IMG/VR virus record: IMGVR_UViG_3300048836_000122
DNA: 20,000 nt
Strand: one strand, 5' to 3'
Origin: an uncultured virus (IMG/VR IMGVR_UViG_3300048836_000122)
Lineage: Duplodnaviria; Heunggongvirae; Uroviricota; Caudoviricetes
Both the position numbers and the translations under genes were made by a program. Numbering within the stretch: the first letter of the stretch is position 1; each line of letters opens with the position of its first letter. The notes below the pieces were generated by a model, which had not been told where the DNA came from, did no database searches, and was given only the letters and a program-made list of their open reading frames with translations. Below are positions 1-9,947 of this stretch, one piece after another.

Positions 1-80
1 GGTTAGGTAGTGGTAAAAGTAAAGAGCGTTCAGTAACTTACCAGGGGATTGCTGATGCTATTGCGGAACAATGGACGTAG
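1..80 (+). CDS. 3' end of a phage DNA cytosine methyltransferase-like protein (partial; cassette 1 of the array)
   Basis: Frame from nt 3 reads LGSGKSKERSVTYQGIADAIAEQWT* (TAG 78-80), resembling the C-terminal RSxTxxGIAxAxAEQW motif of small phage methyltransferase-like proteins. Only 25 codons are visible. Confidence 0.55.
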   Translation, partial: LGSGKSKERSVTYQGIADAIAEQWT

Positions 81-86
81 TATTAT

Positions 87-218
87 GGCTAACGTTTCGC
101 ATATTGCCGAAGGTGGCAATTTCGGAGCAGAAAACTTGAAACTTAAATAAATGTTTAACCGAAGCAAAAATGTTCACTTAACCACAGACCTGCCACTTTT
201 GGCAATATGCTGTTATGT
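87..218. repeat. attC-like hairpin site 1
   Basis: GGCTAAC (87-93); left arm GCATATTGCCGAAGGTGGCA (99-118) pairs with right arm TGCCACTTTTGGCAATATGC (191-210) with 2 G.T pairs; GTTATGT at 212-218. Confidence 0.8.
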
Positions 219-245
219 GCCGTTTTTCTTCACAAATTAATAAAT

Positions 246-503
246 ATGAACTGGAAAAGATACCGTTTAAAAACTTATGCTGTTAGCGACAACAGACCGT
301 TAATCTTCAATCCTAAATATCCTTGGTGGTGTTCAGGTTATGGTGAAGATGAAAAAGGCGAATACTCTGTAATAATTGCGTATTTACCAAAGGATGAAGA
401 TTTATTAAAGTATTGGGATGATGCTTTTGATGTGGAATTTACAGAAGAAGAAAGCATAAGTTTTTCTGATAGATTTCCGAAACCGAGTTACTTCGTGTCT
501 TAA
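246..503 (+). CDS. hypothetical protein (cassette 2)
   Basis: 85-aa ORF from ATG 246 after an AT-rich leader; alternative in-frame ATG at 207 in the hairpin arm; the stop overlaps the cassette terminal inverted repeat. Confidence 0.8.
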   Translation: MNWKRYRLKTYAVSDNRPLIFNPKYPWWCSGYGEDEKGEYSVIIAYLPKDEDLLKYWDDAFDVEFTEEESISFSDRFPKPSYFVS

Positions 504-506
504 AAT

Positions 507-604
507 GGCACATAACGTTTTGCGGCTTGGCGAAGGCTGCCTAACGATATTTTTAATATTCGCACGAATTTCATGGCAGCTTTTGCCAAACCGCTGTTAT
601 GTGC
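507..604. repeat. attC-like hairpin site 2
   Basis: GGCACATAAC (507-516); left arm GCGGCTTGGCGAAGGCTGCC (522-541) pairs with right arm GGCAGCTTTTGCCAAACCGC (575-594); GTTATGTGC at 596-604. Confidence 0.8.
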
Positions 605-660
605 TTCAAGAATACAAGCAATGGTTAATTGATAAACGTCTGGTTAAGGAGGTTCAGTAG
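598..660 (+). pseudogene. remnant 3' end of a cassette gene (deleted cassette 3)
   Basis: Reads YVLQEYKQWLIDKRLVKEVQ* with TAG directly before the next AAC site, as in the intact cassettes. The cassette is only ~78 bp and its two ends are not complementary. Confidence 0.45.
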
Positions 661-664
661 CCTT

Positions 665-781
665 GCAGGTAACGTTTAGTATAAAAAACAATAAACTTTC
701 GGATATGACAAACGATAATAAAAAACAAAAACTTTCGGACAGCACGGACACCGCTATTGACGGTTATACATTGTTACCTGC
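665..781. repeat. degenerate attC-like site 3
   Basis: GCAGGTAAC (665-673) ... GTTACCTGC (773-781); only GTATAA (679-684)/TTATAC (764-769) of the inner stem pairs, and the CGAAGG/CTTTTG motif is missing. Confidence 0.6.
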
Positions 782-980
782 CGTTTTTTGTCACAGGATT
801 AGAGCAGGAAAGTATTATGTCAAAATTGGCGAACACGAATACGAAATTTACAATCACGGGTATTATCCACCTGATAAATGTATTTGGTGGGAAGCGACAA
901 ACTTGAAAACGAATGAAGCTGATTTTCACGAACACACCAAATTTCAACTATTAGAAACTATGAAACGTGAACTGTCTTAA
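705..980 (+). CDS. hypothetical protein (cassette 4), start codon inside site 3
   Basis: 91-aa ORF MTNDNKKQK...TMKRELS; the only in-frame ATG within the cassette body is near the C-terminus; stop abuts the terminal inverted repeat. Confidence 0.7.
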   Translation: MTNDNKKQKLSDSTDTAIDGYTLLPAVFCHRIRAGKYYVKIGEHEYEIYNHGYYPPDKCIWWEATNLKTNEADFHEHTKFQLLETMKRELS

Positions 981-983
981 AAT

Positions 984-1118
984 GGCAGGTAACGGCTGAC
1001 GCTATACGAAGGCAGGGGTTAAGATGCACTCCCTTTCAGCCTTGCATAAATGATAAAAGATGCACACCGCTCACTTTAGCAGTACGCCCCTGCTTTTGTA
1101 TAGCGTATGTTATAGGGC
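984..1118. repeat. attC-like hairpin site 4
   Basis: GGCAGGTAAC (984-993); left arm ACGCTATACGAAGGCAGGGG (999-1018) pairs with right arm CCCCTGCTTTTGTATAGCGT (1087-1106) with 2 G.T pairs; GTTATAGGGC at 1109-1118. Confidence 0.8.
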
Positions 1119-1134
1119 GTTTTATTTTAATTGT

Positions 1135-1356
1135 ATGGAATTTTACGGAAGTATCAGAATAAAAAAAGCTGCCACTTTACAAAGTTGGATTGATAAGGGA
1201 TGGTATCAAAAAGAGATTGATAAGGGATATACATTTGCACCTGCTTGTGGTAGATTTCGTATTGGCAAGTGCGAATGTTCAAGATGTCAAAGACCTAACG
1301 GTGGATGGGAGAAGAAAGCTGTTTTGGAGCGTAACGGTCTTTTAAATGCCCTATAA
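1135..1356 (+). CDS. small Cys-rich hypothetical protein (cassette 5)
   Basis: 73-aa ORF with C-x7-CxCxxC, a possible metal site; upstream in-frame ATG at 1060 in the site 4 loop; TAA stop lies within the terminal ...CCCTATAAC. Confidence 0.7.
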   Translation: MEFYGSIRIKKAATLQSWIDKGWYQKEIDKGYTFAPACGRFRIGKCECSRCQRPNGGWEKKAVLERNGLLNAL

Positions 1357-1408
1357 CTCCTATATGTATCAAACCCTCACAATTTATTATAAACCAAACA
1401 ATTGCATT

Positions 1409-1633
1409 ATGAATATCGGAAAGTATGTACAACAGTATTCCGAAGACCTTCGGCTCAAGAATTACGCTGAGAATACCATCAGGAATTATGCCGCGCAGGT
1501 GGATTCCTTTCTTAGACATTTCCAGTCGGTGGCTACCAAACCCAGCGAAATATCTGAGCGACAGATCAAAGCATGGTTGGCTAAGACAATTAATACGCGT
1601 AAACATCGCTTATCAGTATTGGAAAGGTGTTAA
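1409..1633 (+). pseudogene. truncated tyrosine recombinase (N-terminal SAM-like domain only)
   Basis: MNIGKYVQQYSEDLRLKNYAENTIRNYAAQVDSFLRHF...PSEISERQIKAWL fits the LRxxxYSxxTIxxY...FL...P..I...I..WL pattern of integron/phage integrase N-terminal SAM-like domains. It stops after 74 aa and I see no catalytic domain downstream. Confidence 0.75.
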
Positions 1634-1696
1634 AGATGCGATTTCGTCTTTTTAGCATTTCCGATAACTTTCTAAACAGTTCAAAAAATTGAACCA

Positions 1697-2104
1697 ATGA
1701 AAGCAATACTAATTAGTATAATTTTCCTACCAATACTCGGATATGGACAGATGATGGACGATTTTAGACGTTACATCCGGGCAGATACGGTGAAGTTTGA
1801 CACTATAAGGTATTTAGAGGATATGGTTCGAGAGTCATGGTGTGATTCATCAGCAGATATAAGATATGATTTAGAGGATTTGATTATTATTGACAAGTGC
1901 GAAATAAGAGGCCATGTATGGACACCCCACTATGTTACTGACTTAGTGTATTATCCAAACGAGGCAAGACTGGTTGATTCCGATAGCATGACAGTAATGA
2001 TTTACCCTGCAAAATACTCGTTTGAGAAGTGTGTGAGGTGTGGGGAAATCAAAAAAACGAAGGAAAGTGATGAAATTCACAAATTACTTTGGAGGAAAAA
2101 GTAG
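1697..2104 (+). CDS. exported hypothetical protein with signal peptide
   Basis: MKAILISIIFLPILGYG|Q looks like an SPI signal followed by Gln; C...GHVW...CVRCG suggests a zinc site; DTV/DTI/DSM motifs. Confidence 0.7.
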   Translation: MKAILISIIFLPILGYGQMMDDFRRYIRADTVKFDTIRYLEDMVRESWCDSSADIRYDLEDLIIIDKCEIRGHVWTPHYVTDLVYYPNEARLVDSDSMTVMIYPAKYSFEKCVRCGEIKKTKESDEIHKLLWRKK

Positions 2105-2154
2105 TATCTTTGAGTACGCAACCATAACGAGTTTAGAATAGGAAAATAAGAAGC

Positions 2155-3351
2155 ATGATTAAGTCACACGTCATAAAACTACACCCCACAAAGGGGCAGG
2201 AGGCTTTCTTCCGAAAGTCCTCTGGCGTGTCACGTTTTGCCTACAACTGGGCTTTACAGCGATGGAAAGAGATTTACGAAGAAACAGGAAAGGGTACATC
2301 GGCTTATAGCCTGATTAAGGAGTTGAATAGTATAAAGCGAGAGGAGTTTCCATGGATGATGGAGGTTGGGAAGTGTGCGCCACAATATGCAATTCATAAC
2401 TTGGAAAGTGCATTTAAGCGATTCTTCAAGAAAAACGCCAAGTACCCTGTATTCAAGAAGAAGGGTCGGAAAGATTCTTTTGTGGCGGTTGAGAATAAAG
2501 AGCAATTCAAGCAGTCTGGACTAAAATTATGGATACCAAGATTGGGATGGGTGAGATGTGCGGAGGAGTTACGATTTAATGGGAAGGTAAATAACATGAC
2601 GGTGAAGCGCATAGCAAATATGTGGTTTGCCGTGGTAAACGTAGATACCCAGGTACAACCTACAGTATGTGAGAACCAAACTGTTGTAGGCGTGGACTTG
2701 GGTATTAAATATATGGCTGTGTGTAGCGATGGACGAGTATTCGAGAACCCCAAATCTCTTTCTAAGAGATTAGAGGCGTTGCGGACAGCGCAGCGAAAGT
2801 TGAGCCGGAAGCAGAAAGGTTCCTCCAATTGGAAAAAGCAGGTAGCACGAGTTGGCAGGATTCACTACAAAGTGACTTGCGCTCGAAAGAATGCAATACA
2901 CCAAGCAACGTCAGAGATAGTAAAATCGGCAGGCGTAATCGTATTGGAGGACTTAAATGTTAAGGGAATGGCCCGAAACAAAAAGTTGGCCAGAGCGGTT
3001 AGCGATGCAGGGATGGGTGAATTTCGCAGACAGATCGAGTACAAAGCATCATGGGCCGGAGTAGAGGTAGTAATTGTAGATCGGTGGTTTCCATCATCTC
3101 AATTAGACCACAAGACCGGAGAGCGACACAGCATCACACTAAAAGACCGAATGATATATCATTCGGATGGAACAAGTACATGCCGGGACTTAAATGCGGC
3201 AATGAACTTAAAGAACTACTATACCGGGAAAGTCTCGGGAATAAACGCCTCCGGAGTTGATGTAAGACCTGTTTTACAGGCAAGCGACGATGAACGAGGA
3301 ATTGGATTTGTTAACAATAAAATCTTAAAACTTTGGCTAAGATCATCTTAA
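2155..3351 (+). CDS. tnpB: RNA-guided endonuclease TnpB (IS200/IS605/IS607 family), no tnpA in window
   Basis: N-terminal IKLHPT...SRFAYNWAL, PVFKKK, RuvC motifs VGVDLG, VLEDLNV and RDLNAAMNL with all three acidic residues present. Confidence 0.95.
   Translation: MIKSHVIKLHPTKGQEAFFRKSSGVSRFAYNWALQRWKEIYEETGKGTSAYSLIKELNSIKREEFPWMMEVGKCAPQYAIHNLESAFKRFFKKNAKYPVFKKKGRKDSFVAVENKEQFKQSGLKLWIPRLGWVRCAEELRFNGKVNNMTVKRIANMWFAVVNVDTQVQPTVCENQTVVGVDLGIKYMAVCSDGRVFENPKSLSKRLEALRTAQRKLSRKQKGSSNWKKQVARVGRIHYKVTCARKNAIHQATSEIVKSAGVIVLEDLNVKGMARNKKLARAVSDAGMGEFRRQIEYKASWAGVEVVIVDRWFPSSQLDHKTGERHSITLKDRMIYHSDGTSTCRDLNAAMNLKNYYTGKVSGINASGVDVRPVLQASDDERGIGFVNNKILKLWLRSS
3220..3312 (+). ncRNA. probable omegaRNA scaffold / element right end overlapping the tnpB 3' end (boundaries approximate)
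   Basis: Hairpins CCGGGA-aag-TCTCGG (3224-3238) and CCTGT-ttt-ACAGG (3268-3280), CCTC (3248-3251)/GAGG (3296-3299) pairing, and an ACGCCT.GGAG...GTAAGACC...TGAAnnAGGAA layout typical of tnpB 3' ends. Confidence 0.6.
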
Positions 3352-3935
3352 ACGCAGGTCACGGAGGGATTACTTTAAAGAAAGGCTATGTAACGCCTGG
3401 GAAAAGAGGCCCACTTGGACACCGAGGACAAATCTTTGAAGGCATGAGCAACCGAGGCTTAGTACATGAGCTGGCGTATTTTCTTTCCTTAAAAGGCCAT
3501 ACAGTAGAAGTAATAAGTCACAGCACTCTTGATACATCAGTTGGATCAAGAGGTCGCTATGCCCAAGAAATCAAAGGAGACTTACTGTTGGACTTTCACT
3601 CGAATGCCATATCAGATGTAGAGTTCAGAGACTATACAGGCTTTGAACTATGGACAACCGAAGGAGAAACGCCAAGTGATCACTTTGCAAAGCACATAGC
3701 CAAGGGATTAAAATCATCCTATCCTCATGTAAGATGGCGGCATGGTCCGGGGATGGAGGACGACAAGGAAAAGAACTTTTCGTTAATTTACATGGCCGAA
3801 AAAGTCGGCACGAAAGCCGTCTTAGTAGAAACCTTGTTTATGGACGGAGTTCAGGACTACAATTATTTGACGGACGCTATGTGGAGGGCGAAGTATGTAG
3901 AGAATTTTTGCAACATAATTCACAAATACCAATGA
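3333..3935 (+). CDS. N-acetylmuramoyl-L-alanine amidase (Amidase_3), probable endolysin
   Basis: IILNAGHGG, E in IFEGMSN, DFHSNA and AVLVETLFMD are the Zn-ligand and catalytic motifs of Amidase_3; TTG start. Confidence 0.9.
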   Translation: MAKIILNAGHGGITLKKGYVTPGKRGPLGHRGQIFEGMSNRGLVHELAYFLSLKGHTVEVISHSTLDTSVGSRGRYAQEIKGDLLLDFHSNAISDVEFRDYTGFELWTTEGETPSDHFAKHIAKGLKSSYPHVRWRHGPGMEDDKEKNFSLIYMAEKVGTKAVLVETLFMDGVQDYNYLTDAMWRAKYVENFCNIIHKYQ

Positions 3936-3978
3936 AAACACTAATCCTATTCGTCCAAGCATCTGCAAAGCGAGTGAA

Positions 3979-4536
3979 ATGACGGCGGGTATTAATTATG
4001 TCCTTATCGAACCGGACCCGGATAATACCGATTTACATGGAGTGCGCATGAGTGGCGAATTTGACCAAGAACGAATGTGGTCGGTTTATGGCACGGTAAA
4101 AGCACTGCCATCAAAGCTGTGGTTTCATCCACTTACCGGCAACCTGGAAATTGATCGCTGGATCACCGACAAGAGTTTGGAATGGGAAACGGACATGGAA
4201 CTCAAAATAGGCGACCGAGTGCTATTCAGGTACAATGCCTGGATGGACGAAGAAGGCCTAAGCACCTCCGGCATGATGGTAAAATACGATGCGATATATG
4301 CCAAGCTGGATCCAGTTACTCCTTTAAACGGATATGTATTCGTAGATGACGAAGGGAATGTCAAGTATAAGGGAGGGTTAAACAAAAGGTATCTTCACTA
4401 TCCAGAAAGGGAAGATGGGGAAATCGGAACTAAAATATATCCTGTGAGGCGTAGCGTTCGCATGGAAGCAGACGAGTTTGCTAAAATGGGGTTACGCAGG
4501 ATGCAACGAAAAGAAATTTTGTGTTATGAAAAGTAA
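3979..4536 (+). CDS. GroES-like phage protein
   Basis: NYVLIEP...GTVKALP...ELKIGDRVLF...VKYDAIYA resembles a GroES fold, followed by a second partial repeat (PLNGYVFV). Confidence 0.6.
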   Translation: MTAGINYVLIEPDPDNTDLHGVRMSGEFDQERMWSVYGTVKALPSKLWFHPLTGNLEIDRWITDKSLEWETDMELKIGDRVLFRYNAWMDEEGLSTSGMMVKYDAIYAKLDPVTPLNGYVFVDDEGNVKYKGGLNKRYLHYPEREDGEIGTKIYPVRRSVRMEADEFAKMGLRRMQRKEILCYEK

Positions 4537-4762
4537 AAACGAAAGCTGGCCGACAGCAAAACCGACAATTGGAGAAGAAAGAGTACGGACGGACTTCAAC
4601 CCCTTAAAGAACGGCAGGATTGATGAAATTAAGCAAAAGACCGCTGAATTGATTAATTTGTGCGAAGAATTAAAGGCGAGGGACGGTCGATTAGCTTCAT
4701 TGGCTCAAACAGCTTATGAGGAGGCGGCAATGTGGGCGGTAAAAGCGACTTCAACCCCTTAA
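4526..4762 (+). CDS. small helical-hairpin protein, Acb2/Tad1-like candidate
   Basis: 78 aa; IDEIKQKTAELINLCEEL...RLASLAQTAYEEAAMWAVKA resembles the RxxxxAxTxxExAxMWxxKA hairpin of Acb2/Tad1-like phage proteins. Confidence 0.5.
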   Translation: MKSKNESWPTAKPTIGEERVRTDFNPLKNGRIDEIKQKTAELINLCEELKARDGRLASLAQTAYEEAAMWAVKATSTP

Positions 4763-8400: not shown

Positions 8401-9947
8401 TGGACCAAGGTATTGCAGAGGTCAACCAGGTTGGAGATTCAGTCATTATAAATGTACCGGCTCAAACATTGTCGGTTAGTAATGATTCAATTTTCATAAG
8501 TTTAGGAAATGGCGTAAAGGTGCCAAATGTTCCGGCAAATGGCACGGTTTTGAATTCGACATTAAGATGGAGCGGATCGGCATGGGTTGAAAACGATTCT
8601 CTATTGGTGAATGCAGACGGAGAAGCCGCAGCCGGGGGAGCAGCGATAAATACAGCAAGGAGCATAGTCACGACCAAGGATGTAGAAATAAATACGATAA
8701 GAGTAGGAACAGGAAACAGCAGTGTTCCAGGTAATACGGCCGTAGGCGTAAGGGCGCTGAACGTGATTGGTGCTTTGGGAGGAGATAATACAGCAATTGG
8801 ATACGAAACATTGCAAGGATTAACAGGAAATGCTTCAAGGAATACAGCTGTGGGCATGGAAGCGCTGAGAACGGCGAATTCCGGCGGTGCCAACACAGCC
8901 ATAGGTCGCCAAGCATTAAGAAGCTCCACAAACGCCTCCGAGAATACAGCATTGGGAGGACTTGCACTATTCTCTACATCAACGAGCGGATCAAATGTTG
9001 GAGTAGGATACGAAGCCGGGCGCACATTGTCGGGAGCAGGGAGGACATTTAATACAGTCATGGGGCATAATGTTGGGCGCAATGGATTGTATGCAAATTC
9101 CACCTTTTTAGGAGCCGCAGCGGGATTCAATTCCAGTTCAAGTAATAGCGTATTTATCGGAAGAAATGCCGGGTTTAGCGTAAACAAGGACTCGACCTTA
9201 CTTATTGACGTGACCAGCGATACTGTTGCGACCATCGTAGGCGATTTCAGAGGCAGAAAAGTAGGTATTAACCGCAACCCTTTCGGGATTGCTCGAAGGC
9301 TGGATGTAGGCGGTGACTTGCGGGTTCGGGATGACGTTGATAGCACCACGGTCACGCAGTTTTGGGCAGGGAACTTGGAAGGCGATTTAAAAAGAATGTA
9401 TATTGGAGATGGTCTTGGAATTGTTGGCGATACGATTAAGGTGACGTATGTTGAGCAGCCTCCAAGTCCATATATTCTAGCACAGAACGAAAGTATATCG
9501 CCATATACAGATACGATTGCAAGTAACAATTCCAAGAATATACGATTTCCAAATATTGGTCCTTCGCAAGATTGGGTGCTGTCAGCCAATCAAATTGAAT
9601 ACCAAGGTTTAGACTCACTTATGTCAAAAATACATGTAGAGGTTGACTTATCTGCATCAAACGGTACCTTGATAGAGTTTCGATTAAGAGCAAACGTATT
9701 TGGAGGCACCTCAATGGACGTGATACATCGCAGAAGAATAAGCCTAAACGGAGATATTACTAATATTTCGTTGGATTATTTGTATGGGGTAGCACCTGAT
9801 GGTCTATTTTGCCCTAGCTCAGGTGCGGCCAGTTTGTTTGATGTCGAGATAACCAATGTGTCCGGAGATCAACGAACATTTACCATTTACACAGCGAGTA
9901 TATCCAATATAAAGGTTGGAGAATACGAACCTACCTGCCCACTTTAA
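5391..9947 (+). CDS. large fibre/adhesin-like protein with signal peptide
   Basis: MKLWRNIVLLVIASFLLSTVTKG|Q signal; QxLxxxGDSLYITNGNG repeats; GINTxxP/LDVxGD fibre motifs; about 10 NTAxGxxAL (YadA-head-like) repeats near 8730-9190; Gly/Thr/Ser rich. Confidence 0.8.
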   Translation: MKLWRNIVLLVIASFLLSTVTKGQELIKINDTLYRATKDVPIIISVNSTSVYLETTNFGREQANVPLDTILARACTKYFKATLQDGRVYAFNKDFVRRVASRTNNRSYVYMIHTPTRYDIIESVSVLAQRMALCGGVDVFEYQELYLQGDSLYITNGNGVPLDSMLEGISYTAGTGIDITANRITNTGDTNPLDDVLKTTNHDGDVTGVYNMLVVKDGAITINKLDSLNVLTWIIDNFPLIDSTRFDTTNILTWIYNHVDTTDLDEQTLYIQGDSLYITNGNGIPLDSIRSGELPGGERGETLWYDGTDWIVDSSIYNDGAQVGVHAPLIWPGTMTVYGDTIMTFSGDTTYMRVITKGNNIWFDYKGEWFIIKDSTELTGGFGVRSGTLKPRYEVAIPGRITIGGIHDNSTGESNAMFFGQDAMTGSILDAAPTGTSTYNTIKIAGQINQFSGTGVTRGILIQPAINGAADYRGIEIANSSGIGIRQSGELVTNRIFGKTSFGSLLTPARAVHNYGQTRLQTPVTGADGLAGIHLANGDVAHVALGGGLYMSGDTLYSTAFGDDGLNGEGVPNYLAKWTPDSTSLGISQFYDNGTNMGLNNTAPVRKLDVTGDMRVSGSVDTASASKVWVGNAAGDLRKVNMGSDLIVQGDSIKVVGGVAGDGSPYYLARWAPDSTTLNTSTVYDSFRVGINTKVPDAALEVRGDANDVNLFRIARQEGDKLYEVDSTGAMFIGNASTRSYIYPYGGSSTPNINNRGIGFYSRSTVTLGHYFGGINVGNSAGTYPSILAERTWNPASGSGTFKLLELKPTINQGGSATGRSYGLYIEPVLTSSAEWIGAYTTGTDGTGFLQEGSSQTNRFEGNTTIGSAIAGVRTGQITGDFRVTEDVDTATVSNLWGANTLGDFNKVLIGSGLDVTGDSISASYYWSLEDGAEATSFLEGDVLTVLGTGSVTATLDTATKTLTINGAGPAGDGGETNLGLNVGPGEEIYKGKTDTTLLFRTLVDQGIAEVNQVGDSVIINVPAQTLSVSNDSIFISLGNGVKVPNVPANGTVLNSTLRWSGSAWVENDSLLVNADGEAAAGGAAINTARSIVTTKDVEINTIRVGTGNSSVPGNTAVGVRALNVIGALGGDNTAIGYETLQGLTGNASRNTAVGMEALRTANSGGANTAIGRQALRSSTNASENTALGGLALFSTSTSGSNVGVGYEAGRTLSGAGRTFNTVMGHNVGRNGLYANSTFLGAAAGFNSSSSNSVFIGRNAGFSVNKDSTLLIDVTSDTVATIVGDFRGRKVGINRNPFGIARRLDVGGDLRVRDDVDSTTVTQFWAGNLEGDLKRMYIGDGLGIVGDTIKVTYVEQPPSPYILAQNESISPYTDTIASNNSKNIRFPNIGPSQDWVLSANQIEYQGLDSLMSKIHVEVDLSASNGTLIEFRLRANVFGGTSMDVIHRRRISLNGDITNISLDYLYGVAPDGLFCPSSGAASLFDVEITNVSGDQRTFTIYTASISNIKVGEYEPTCPL

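Follow-up and report, generated by a model that had tools for sequence, protein, structure and literature searches.

We analyze a family of hairpins that lie between small genes at the start of a 20,000-nt stretch of DNA from an uncultured Caudoviricetes virus (IMG/VR record IMGVR_UViG_3300048836_000122; the whole stretch is called the window, and position 1 is its first letter). These hairpins are probably attC-like recombination sites of an integron-like gene-cassette system in Bacteroidota phages, which works with an Xer-like recombinase. Their stems covary, they recur in arrays, their outer boxes are swapped between neighboring sites, they mark cassette borders, and the arrays are linked to a tyrosine recombinase that lacks the insertion found in integron integrases. 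Positions 1–1357 of the window hold small + strand open reading frames (ORFs) one after another, none with a known family, and sites 1–4 lie between them. A first-pass annotation, made from the letters alone, had described sites 1, 2 and 4 as non-canonical sites with a covarying stem and strand-biased G.T pairs, and had proposed that selection maintains a folded, single-stranded + strand substrate. That interpretation is partly supported: covariation argues for intramolecular pairing, and folds, G.T bias and cassette borders argue for + strand polarity.

Hairpin anatomy and covariation

The sites of the family share the following parts.

Left box, + strand: TTGC NNN TAAC
Wobble, + strand: the G after AAC pairs with the T before GTT
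Bulge, + strand: T-rich, 3–5 nt, in the 5′ arm only
Stem: 19–21 bp, free in sequence except for one T-A pair and one G.T wobble
Loop: about 33 or about 70 nt
Right box: GTTA NNN GC..

The window contains four such sites.

77..228, + strand: site 1, long class; left box to AAC 91–93; G94 pairs with T211; bulge 95–98; arm 99–118 (CGAAGG 108–113); loop 119–190; arm 191–210 (CTTTTG 196–201); GTT 212–214; right box to about 224; model score 122.7 bits, E 8e-25
500..612, + strand: site 2, short class, type A; AAC 514–516; G517 pairs with T595; bulge 518–521; arms 522–541 (CGAAGG 531–536) and 575–594 (CTTTTG 580–585), with mismatch C526/A590; GTT 596–598; model score 69.0 bits
657..789, + strand: site 3, decayed; AAC 671–673; GTT 773–775; stem broken at the expected core position; model score 49.4 bits, E 1e-8
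977..1125, + strand: site 4, long class; AAC 991–993; arms 999–1018 (CGAAGG 1007–1012) and 1087–1106 (CTTTTG 1093–1098); GTT 1109–1111; model score 89.0 bits

A repeat search of window positions 1–1700 returned the arm pairs of sites 1, 2 and 4 as its top three inverted repeats (90, 85 and 90% complementary, respectively); when G.T pairs are counted, 20, 19 and 20 of the 20 arm positions are paired. Together with sequence reading and folding, this bears out the description of 20-nt arms that differ in sequence and nevertheless pair, and the arms are indeed continuous, with no bulged base. Reading of the sequence and a regular-expression search place AAC, CGAAGG, CTTTTG and GTT of the three sites exactly where they had been annotated, with CTTTTG ending exactly 10 nt before GTT in each case. 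A stem scan (AAC..GTT, 20-nt arms, at least 17 pairs) was run on both strands and on shuffled windows. On the + strand it found sites 1, 2 and 4 plus one likely false match at 8424–8502, on the − strand of the window it found no site, and the shuffled windows gave 0.15 matches per 20-kb strand. A covariance model built from related sites recovered all four window sites, on the + strand only, with E-values from 8e-25 to 6e-13 for sites 1, 2 and 4. Consequently, the scan matches and the model scores exclude chance for these three sites. Site 3, which has no stable fold (z +0.28), is a decayed family member.

The family extends well beyond the window. An exact-pattern scan of viral contigs returned at least 123 stretches, on which the family survey was built; family sites thus occur on at least 123 viral contigs, often in co-oriented arrays, and a generic stem scan of those loci found arrays of up to 12 co-oriented sites per 10 kb. 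Among the matches listed there are 231 distinct sites in two length classes, of about 85 nt and about 122–125 nt. The search pattern is not fitted by 134 of the 231, and in these the T at −15, the A at −7 and the T at −1 from GTT, as well as the G after AAC, are 95–98% conserved. Alignment A1 of 93 long-class sites is the source of the covariance model. A second, integrase-anchored sample consists of 52 loci fetched by the recombinase protein alone, 47 viral and 5 genomic (including Flavobacterium urumqiense), and its 94 sites were aligned by fitting them to the covariance model. The system is carried mostly by phages of Bacteroidota with flavobacteria-type hosts, and by a few host or metagenome-assembled-genome contigs as well.

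Across the 93 aligned long-class sites, AAC and GTT are invariant (93/93) and 94.9% of stem cells are paired in the structure given above. Compensatory changes, for which the first-pass annotation had proposed to examine homologous sites, are found throughout the stem, and 17 of its 19 pairs have changed on both sides. The covariation score is 0.563, compared to 0.154 for shuffled alignments (0 of 500 shuffles reach it) and to 0.066–0.128 for slid partners. These results support selection on the sites for intramolecular pairing. The stem's fixed elements are few: a T-A (U-A) pair in 93/93 sites, a G.T (G.U) wobble in 92/93 and the AACG/TGTT G.T pair in 89/93. A second core wobble is not invariant, being G.T in 59 and G-C in 19 of the 93 sites, and G-C in 49 of the 94 recombinase-anchored sites.

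Several features that had been read from three sites change their meaning at the scale of the family. The CGAAGG/CTTTTG core, annotated as fixed, holds for the three window sites; in the family, both motifs occur together in 18 of 93 sites, and only the inner G.T is invariant. The asymmetric loop of 5 nt versus 1–2 nt beside AAC/GTT is a genuine asymmetry, better read as the G.T pair AACG/TGTT followed by the T-rich bulge in the 5′ arm only, which is 4 nt long in 75/93 sites. As for the conserved mismatches, said to be G.T on the + strand and C.A on the − strand, the first half stands, but site 2 also has a C.A mismatch on its + strand (C526/A590). Such a mismatch, beside the invariant T-A pair (columns 28/142 of alignment A1), is present in 35/93 sites. 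The family has no single extrahelical bases; it has wobbles and the 3–5 nt bulge next to the core instead. The T-rich, one-arm bulge could do the job that had been proposed for the wobbles, namely to replace the extrahelical bases of classical attC.

The loops and flanks carry conserved motifs of their own. Long-class loops (roughly 70 nt; L039 3752–3874 and L020 5392–5514, for example) hold two to three copies of an 18–19 nt motif like GCACAAATGTTnAAT, and short-class loops hold one or two copies of a similar motif; because of these copies, the loops are not free ‘variable’ structures. A conserved 45-nt leader (GCTGGGCGGTTTATCAG.., as in L013 5088–5135) follows 20 of the 23 type A sites, and this leader and the right box form a small hairpin that covaries with the three variable box letters. 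Inspection of loops and arms by eye for Bacteroidota-type promoter motifs gave no convincing match.

Recombinase, attI-like junction and cassette borders

The full-length relatives of the recombinase stump in the window (described below) are 267–278 amino acids (aa) long. Their profile aligns end to end with XerA (6–268) and is collinear with XerA and XerD (5HXY, 4A8E, 1A0P). Against IntI4 (2A3V) the alignment falls into two pieces, 12–178 with 11–180 and 197–273 with 242–318. Between these pieces the phage recombinase has 18 residues where IntI4 has 61; the integron-integrase insertion (I2 helix region) is therefore absent. The recombinase scores below every NCBIfam cut-off, for example 157.6 bits in two stretches for TIGR02249, compared to a cut-off of 265. 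R133, K158, H223, R226, H249 and Y258 are invariant among 34 recombinase sequences, and we read these six columns as the presumed catalytic R-K-H-R-H-Y of a simple two-domain Xer recombinase.

The array has the recombinase gene at its downstream end, and gene, sites and ORFs share one strand. In the 52 loci fetched by protein, 108 of the 112 model hits are on the recombinase strand, all 108 of them upstream of the gene, and the strict scan of the same loci counts 66 sites upstream and 4 downstream. The other four model hits belong to a single locus, L169, where four sites lie opposite to and downstream of a partial recombinase gene in a rearranged platform; in L074, likewise rearranged, another N-terminal piece of a recombinase lies shortly before the full gene.

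Where the array meets the recombinase it ends in a left box, with the consensus TTGC NNN TAAC TAC TATATGTAAA. All loci that extend far enough upstream (47/47) have the junction motif AAC NNN (T/C)AT N T (G/A) T, and its distance from the recombinase start is 50–53 nt in 45 loci or 111 nt in 2 loci. When split as TTGC NNN TAA / C TAC TA / TATGTAAA, the consensus shows a likeness, judged by eye only, to Vibrio cholerae dif1, which reads AGTGCGTATTA TGTATG TTATGTTAAAT (Table I of PMC3089051). The junction thus resembles, and is putatively, a dif-like double-stranded insertion site. At the junctions of L146, L154, L165 and others, a second TGTAAA follows about 12 nt after the first (TATATGTAAAAACCATCTGTAAAC), which recalls the direct repeats of attI1. 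A search for the recombinase at E up to 1e-100 found none in 400 genomes across the phylum of genome G001; at most six first-look candidates were scored per genome, and we therefore read this result only as not found in those searched.

The remaining features of the array in the window are as follows.

246..503, + strand: cassette ORF, 85 aa, no known family
599..670, + strand: cassette ORF remnant, the 3′ end only of a gene that is complete in LR756502.1 (L001 6098–6336)
816..980, + strand: cassette ORF, with ATG at 816 or at 705 in frame with 663–980, no known family
990..1357, + strand: whole mobile cassette, with site 4, an ORF (1135–1356) and left box GCCCTATAAC (1348–1357)
1358..1408, + strand: attI-like junction, AAC then TCC TATATGTATC, 51 nt before the recombinase start
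1409..1633, + strand: truncated tyrosine recombinase, N-terminal SAM-like domain only, 74 aa, PF13495 E 2.7e-10

Pfam and PHROGs gave no match for the three cassette ORFs. Behind the fifth left box (1348–1357) there is no hairpin, and the recombinase stump of 74 codons begins 51 nt on.

The outer boxes follow the logic of a circular cassette. For the cassette ORF at 246–503, the start of the right box, GTTATGTGCC (212–221), is the exact complement of the left box GGCACATAAC (507–516) at its end. Comparing each right box in the window to the complement of the next left box gives 10/10 matches for sites 1 to 2, 3 to 4 and 4 to 5, and 7/10 for sites 2 to 3. In the family, when the 9 nt that follow GTTA in one site are set against the complement of the 9 nt that precede TAAC in the next, 5.85 of 9 positions agree on average, and 42 of 124 pairs reach at least 8; the corresponding means are 3.25 within one site (1/248 reach at least 8) and 2.98 for random pairs. 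Of 117 cassettes, 76 have their ORFs running in the direction of the site, and 2 have them on the other strand.

Cassette borders were located by comparing shared DNA. Window positions 990–1357 recur in a 29,267-nt contig of sequencing run X1 with 0 differences and with unlike DNA on both sides, so that an identical cassette is found in different platforms, and in that contig a junction-like sequence also follows the cassette. Contigs of runs X5, X9 and X24 stop at 1357 or start at 990 (X5) or at 513. The runs listed number 24, each with at most 9% of the window's words and only as contigs; the borders come from four of them, and the joints listed for these, which stem from related sites, were set aside. 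L053 and L077 share a stretch that begins at the upstream TAAC and comprises hairpin and ORF up to the next left box, after which their hairpins differ. Among 1041 upstream ends of shared segments, 593 lie within 1–2 nt before AAC, compared to 23 at GTT. On the strength of these borders at the left AAC (the 990–1357 copy, L053/L077 and the shared-segment ends), a cassette is a hairpin plus its downstream gene.

Some of the same data could also be read in terms of RNA. The hairpins might be RNA elements (processing, stabilizing or terminator) of a long phage transcript, with the cassettes shuffled by homologous recombination between repeats, a model put forward for the promoter-terminator stem-loops (PeSL) of T4-type phages. 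The co-orientation of ORFs with sites would suit such elements; those conserved pairs that depart from Watson-Crick rules are G.U when read on the coding strand; loops and leader are conserved in type A sites (20/23); and a TTTT occurs within 20 nt after 64 of the 231 sites. However, the borders are exact at AAC rather than spread within repeats, box complementarity jumps to the neighboring site, and in 47/47 loci a dif-like junction and a dedicated recombinase are separated by a fixed distance. The T run is found at only 28% of sites, and an Rfam scan of window positions 1–4000, at E up to 1, matched no family. We consider this explanation unlikely, although the sites may have an additional RNA role beside recombination.

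Several findings weigh against recombination sites as the explanation of the hairpins, or against hairpin plus gene as its unit. The G.T (G.U) wobbles and the ORF co-orientation could also belong to an RNA element. Many of the shared-segment ends at AAC reflect a module of hairpin plus leader that is itself conserved, rather than whole cassettes. What L026 and L042 have in common runs only from GTT up to the following AAC, and neither hairpin is shared; exchange at the right box thus takes place as well, or else homologous exchange within conserved leaders. The 157 inter-site segments yielded 8 homologous cassette pairs from different loci; in 2 of the 8 the upstream hairpin is at least 99% identical and the downstream one unlike, and in the other 6 neither hairpin is conserved, which makes them uninformative. 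The recombinase-anchored sample repeats the anatomy of the long-class sites (G.T in 94/94, T-A in 93/94, covarying pairs 18/19), and it is partly circular because the covariance model rewards the wobble. The run evidence for the borders consists of assembled contigs only, in which neither excision circles nor evidence of transcription was seen; single-stranded substrates, cleavage and excised circles are presumed. Because the window's own recombinase is truncated, activity within the window is not required.

Strand choice and a proposed mechanism

Folding of both strands, a check that the first-pass annotation had recommended, shows a stronger + strand fold at site 1 (−21.6 versus −20.2 kcal/mol), site 2 (−26.3 versus −22.0 kcal/mol) and site 4 (−23.9 versus −19.1 kcal/mol). 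The same holds in 88 of the 93 family sites, by 2.9 kcal/mol on average. The wobbles are as asymmetric, with the G in the 5′ arm in 270 of 276 (270 G.T versus 6 T.G). A.C-type mismatches on the + strand are confined to the column of C526/A590, save for 5 elsewhere, and outside this column 36 G.T compare to 5 A.C. This polarity supports the + strand.

The borders point to the same strand. An Xer-type monomer cuts the strand whose arm is 5′ of the cut. Since both the borders of cassettes and the junction near the recombinase map to the AAC of the left box, and since the Xer arm is 5′ of that cut on the + strand, the strand that is cut would be the + strand, in the 5′ arm of its fold. The opposite assignment has its own arguments. 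Seen from the − strand, every conserved G.T is a C.A, and this strand might be the substrate, its C.A mismatches being the helix distortions that the enzyme reads. Classical attC sites are, as is well established, recombined on the strand that carries the imperfections (PMC3458562), and the L026/L042 case supplies one border at GTT. Nevertheless, the left AAC is where both the recombinase-side ends of arrays and the borders of cassettes are found, the left box has its Xer arm 5′ of the cut on the + strand, and the − strand folds more weakly in those 88 sites. The − strand is an improbable substrate.

Plasmid modules are flanked by dif/Xer sites. Like those module sites, the hairpins might act as double-stranded DNA or as extruded cruciforms, with equivalent strands, and the boxes and the junction do resemble dif (dif1 of PMC3089051). 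But the two boxes of one site are 85–125 nt apart and unable to make one duplex core site, duplex recognition has no need of the 17–18 covarying stem pairs, and the two strands are made unlike by the G in the 5′ arm (270 G.T versus 6 T.G) and by the one-sided bulge. Action as duplex DNA is very unlikely.

The favored mechanism is recombination of a folded single strand. The + strand, when single-stranded, would fold so that the two boxes form one Xer-type arm and the base of the stem serves as the second arm, with the C, the G and the bulge as the unpaired ‘central region’ of a folded pseudo-dif. The recombinase would cut after TAA in the 5′ arm (TAA|C), and that one strand would be exchanged with the site by the recombinase gene (insertion) or with another folded site (excision). 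The resulting junction would be resolved by replication, as in integrons and CTXphi. We infer that three features (the invariant wobble, the wobble at AACG/TGTT and the bulge on one side) distinguish the strands, thereby setting strand choice and orientation.

A broader proposal, on which we find the balance even, is that nature has solved integron-type gene capture a second time in this system. A plain Xer-like recombinase that has no I2 helix would act on folded single-stranded sites, strand and orientation would be given by G.T wobbles and a T-rich bulge rather than by extrahelical bases, the hairpin would come before its gene, and Bacteroidota phages would trade accessory genes by this route, with identical cassettes passing from one platform to another.

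Neighboring genes and known systems

The rest of the window is phage-like, with an amidase (3333–3935), an Acb2/Tad1-like gene (4478–4762), a 1520-aa fibre-like ORF and a weak portal match. The ORF at 4478–4762 matches the Acb2/Tad1 hairpin domain PF24729 (E 8e-14) and is likely, judging from this match, a sponge for defense signaling nucleotides. The recombinase stump is 93% identical to the 278-aa protein P0001, of which tblastn aligns residues 1–74 only, and around codon 70 its frame ceases to resemble full-length relatives. Next come an ORF of 135 aa whose N-terminus is signal-like (1697–2104) and a TnpB gene (2155–3351) unaccompanied by TnpA. The loss of the recombinase may be due to an insertion of IS605 type or to a deletion (window 1620–3351), and because the gene is cut to 74 codons, the array in the window is probably frozen.

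IS200/IS605-type elements use single-stranded hairpins. With TnpB only 0.5 kb from the array, the hairpins might be ends, or relics like repetitive extragenic palindromes, of such an element. A TnpB relative is found in only 1 of 189 fetched loci, which disfavors this reading; no Y1 transposase is seen in the window, and the arrays associate with a tyrosine recombinase instead. We regard an IS605 origin as extremely unlikely.

The cassette after site 2 is truncated, and its right box GTTATGTGCT is joined directly to TCAAG (window 596–610). The complete gene in LR756502.1 has a look-alike, CTTATGTACTTCAAG, inside the ORF (L001 6262–6276). This look-alike suggests an exchange at a secondary site.

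LR756502.1, a 642-kb phage, has site 2 (89% identity) and its following cassette in common with the window, and the covariance model finds three sites in it. Because the whole record has no PF00589 match and only one exact-pattern site, it gives no recombinase context. It also contains two copies of a roughly 70-nt module (L001 5937–6012 and 6337–6412) that begin right after an AAC, are homologous to the junction region of the window (1358–1405) and each end in a left box plus hairpin. The cultured lytic Polaribacter phage P12002L has 4–5 sites according to the model and no annotated recombinase. At 37305–39480 of its record (L126), − strand family sites border small ORFs together with genes for a Mom-like protein and a DNA methyltransferase.

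The system shares with classical integrons its arrays of promoter-poor small genes between imperfect inverted repeats with AAC...GTT ends, a site structure conserved above sequence with paired inner repeats (17/19 covarying), the swapping of outer boxes between neighbors (5.85 versus 3.25 and 2.98), and a Xer-clade tyrosine recombinase beside an insertion site that is here putatively double-stranded. The strand that would fold is the coding strand of the recombinase, as in integrons, and only the cassette genes are turned round. A cut in the 5′ arm would have the geometry of the recombined classical attC strand, and a one-strand exchange is expected here too. There are also differences. The phage recombinase is without the IntI insertion and its I2 helix, which has been credited with the move to single-strand recombination (PMC7790495), and G.T wobbles and a T-rich bulge replace single extrahelical bases. 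The recombinase is downstream and co-directional, whereas IntI is divergent from the cassette genes, with the promoter at the integrase end. The hairpin stands upstream of its gene, so that the cassette genes are read in the direction of the recombinase, and most carriers of the system are phages.

CTXphi attP(+) offers a second comparison, since there, as proposed here, the substrate of an Xer enzyme is a single strand that folds. Its site is made by pairing between two inverted, dif-like halves with about 90 nt between them, and one strand pair is exchanged with duplex dif, the junction being resolved by the host, as the relevant passages of PMC3089051 describe. In that account, the whole phage genome integrates once via host XerC/XerD, whereas here a dedicated single recombinase would serve many cassette sites in arrays, with free covarying stems. 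In T4-type phages, the PeSL are repeated around small variable genes in hyperplastic regions and have been linked to modular shuffling (PMC2839356); that model is one of homologous recombination of regulatory repeats, with no dedicated recombinase, AAC/GTT boxes or box swapping.

The closest published systems are rAID-1 and the phage clusters of attC sites lacking integron integrases (CALINs). In rAID-1 of Bacteroidales (Ross et al., bioRxiv 10.1101/471110), an XerD-family recombinase stands beside co-oriented small-gene arrays with repetitive intergenic sequences ‘reminiscent of integrons’, and the hosts are Bacteroidota. Its described passages define it by a 5′ XerD-like recombinase more than 44% identical to that of Bacteroides fragilis, followed by co-directional low-GC genes. 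The recombinase is thus the 5′ gene there and at the 3′ end here, a comparison of described layouts; the rAID-1 cargo consists of immunity genes in gut bacterial chromosomes, and site anatomy, covariation and strand logic do not appear in those passages. Among the phage CALINs of Qi et al. 2023 (PMC9892861) is P12002L, the carrier of 4–5 sites of the present family. Its attC1 oligo (P12002L_attC1) falls on the − strand of L126, in an AACG...TGTTA hairpin near 30058, and looks like a short relative of the family, although the covariance model, at E up to 1, gives attC1 itself no score. Qi et al. tested their sites as ordinary attC with IntI1, attC1 alone giving no verified recombinants, and the relevant passages of PMC9892861 describe no Xer-like partner and no family. 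We found no published description of the present system in the literature searched, where the supplementary figures on rAID-1 may show the repeat motif of that system.

In the prevailing view of integrons, two features were needed to recombine cassettes as single strands: the I2 helix of IntI and the extrahelical bases of attC. If our reading is true, single-strand cassette recombination without either of them would be a natural test of what is really required. Strand choice would be directly testable, as the invariant wobble and the bulge are simple, mutable features. The system also points to how integrons may have arisen from Xer/dif recombination, and integron finders that require the IntI insertion would miss a whole pool of mobile genes. 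For flavobacterial phages, it would provide a mechanism for their blocks of small variable genes, some of which have DNA methyltransferase genes beside the sites.

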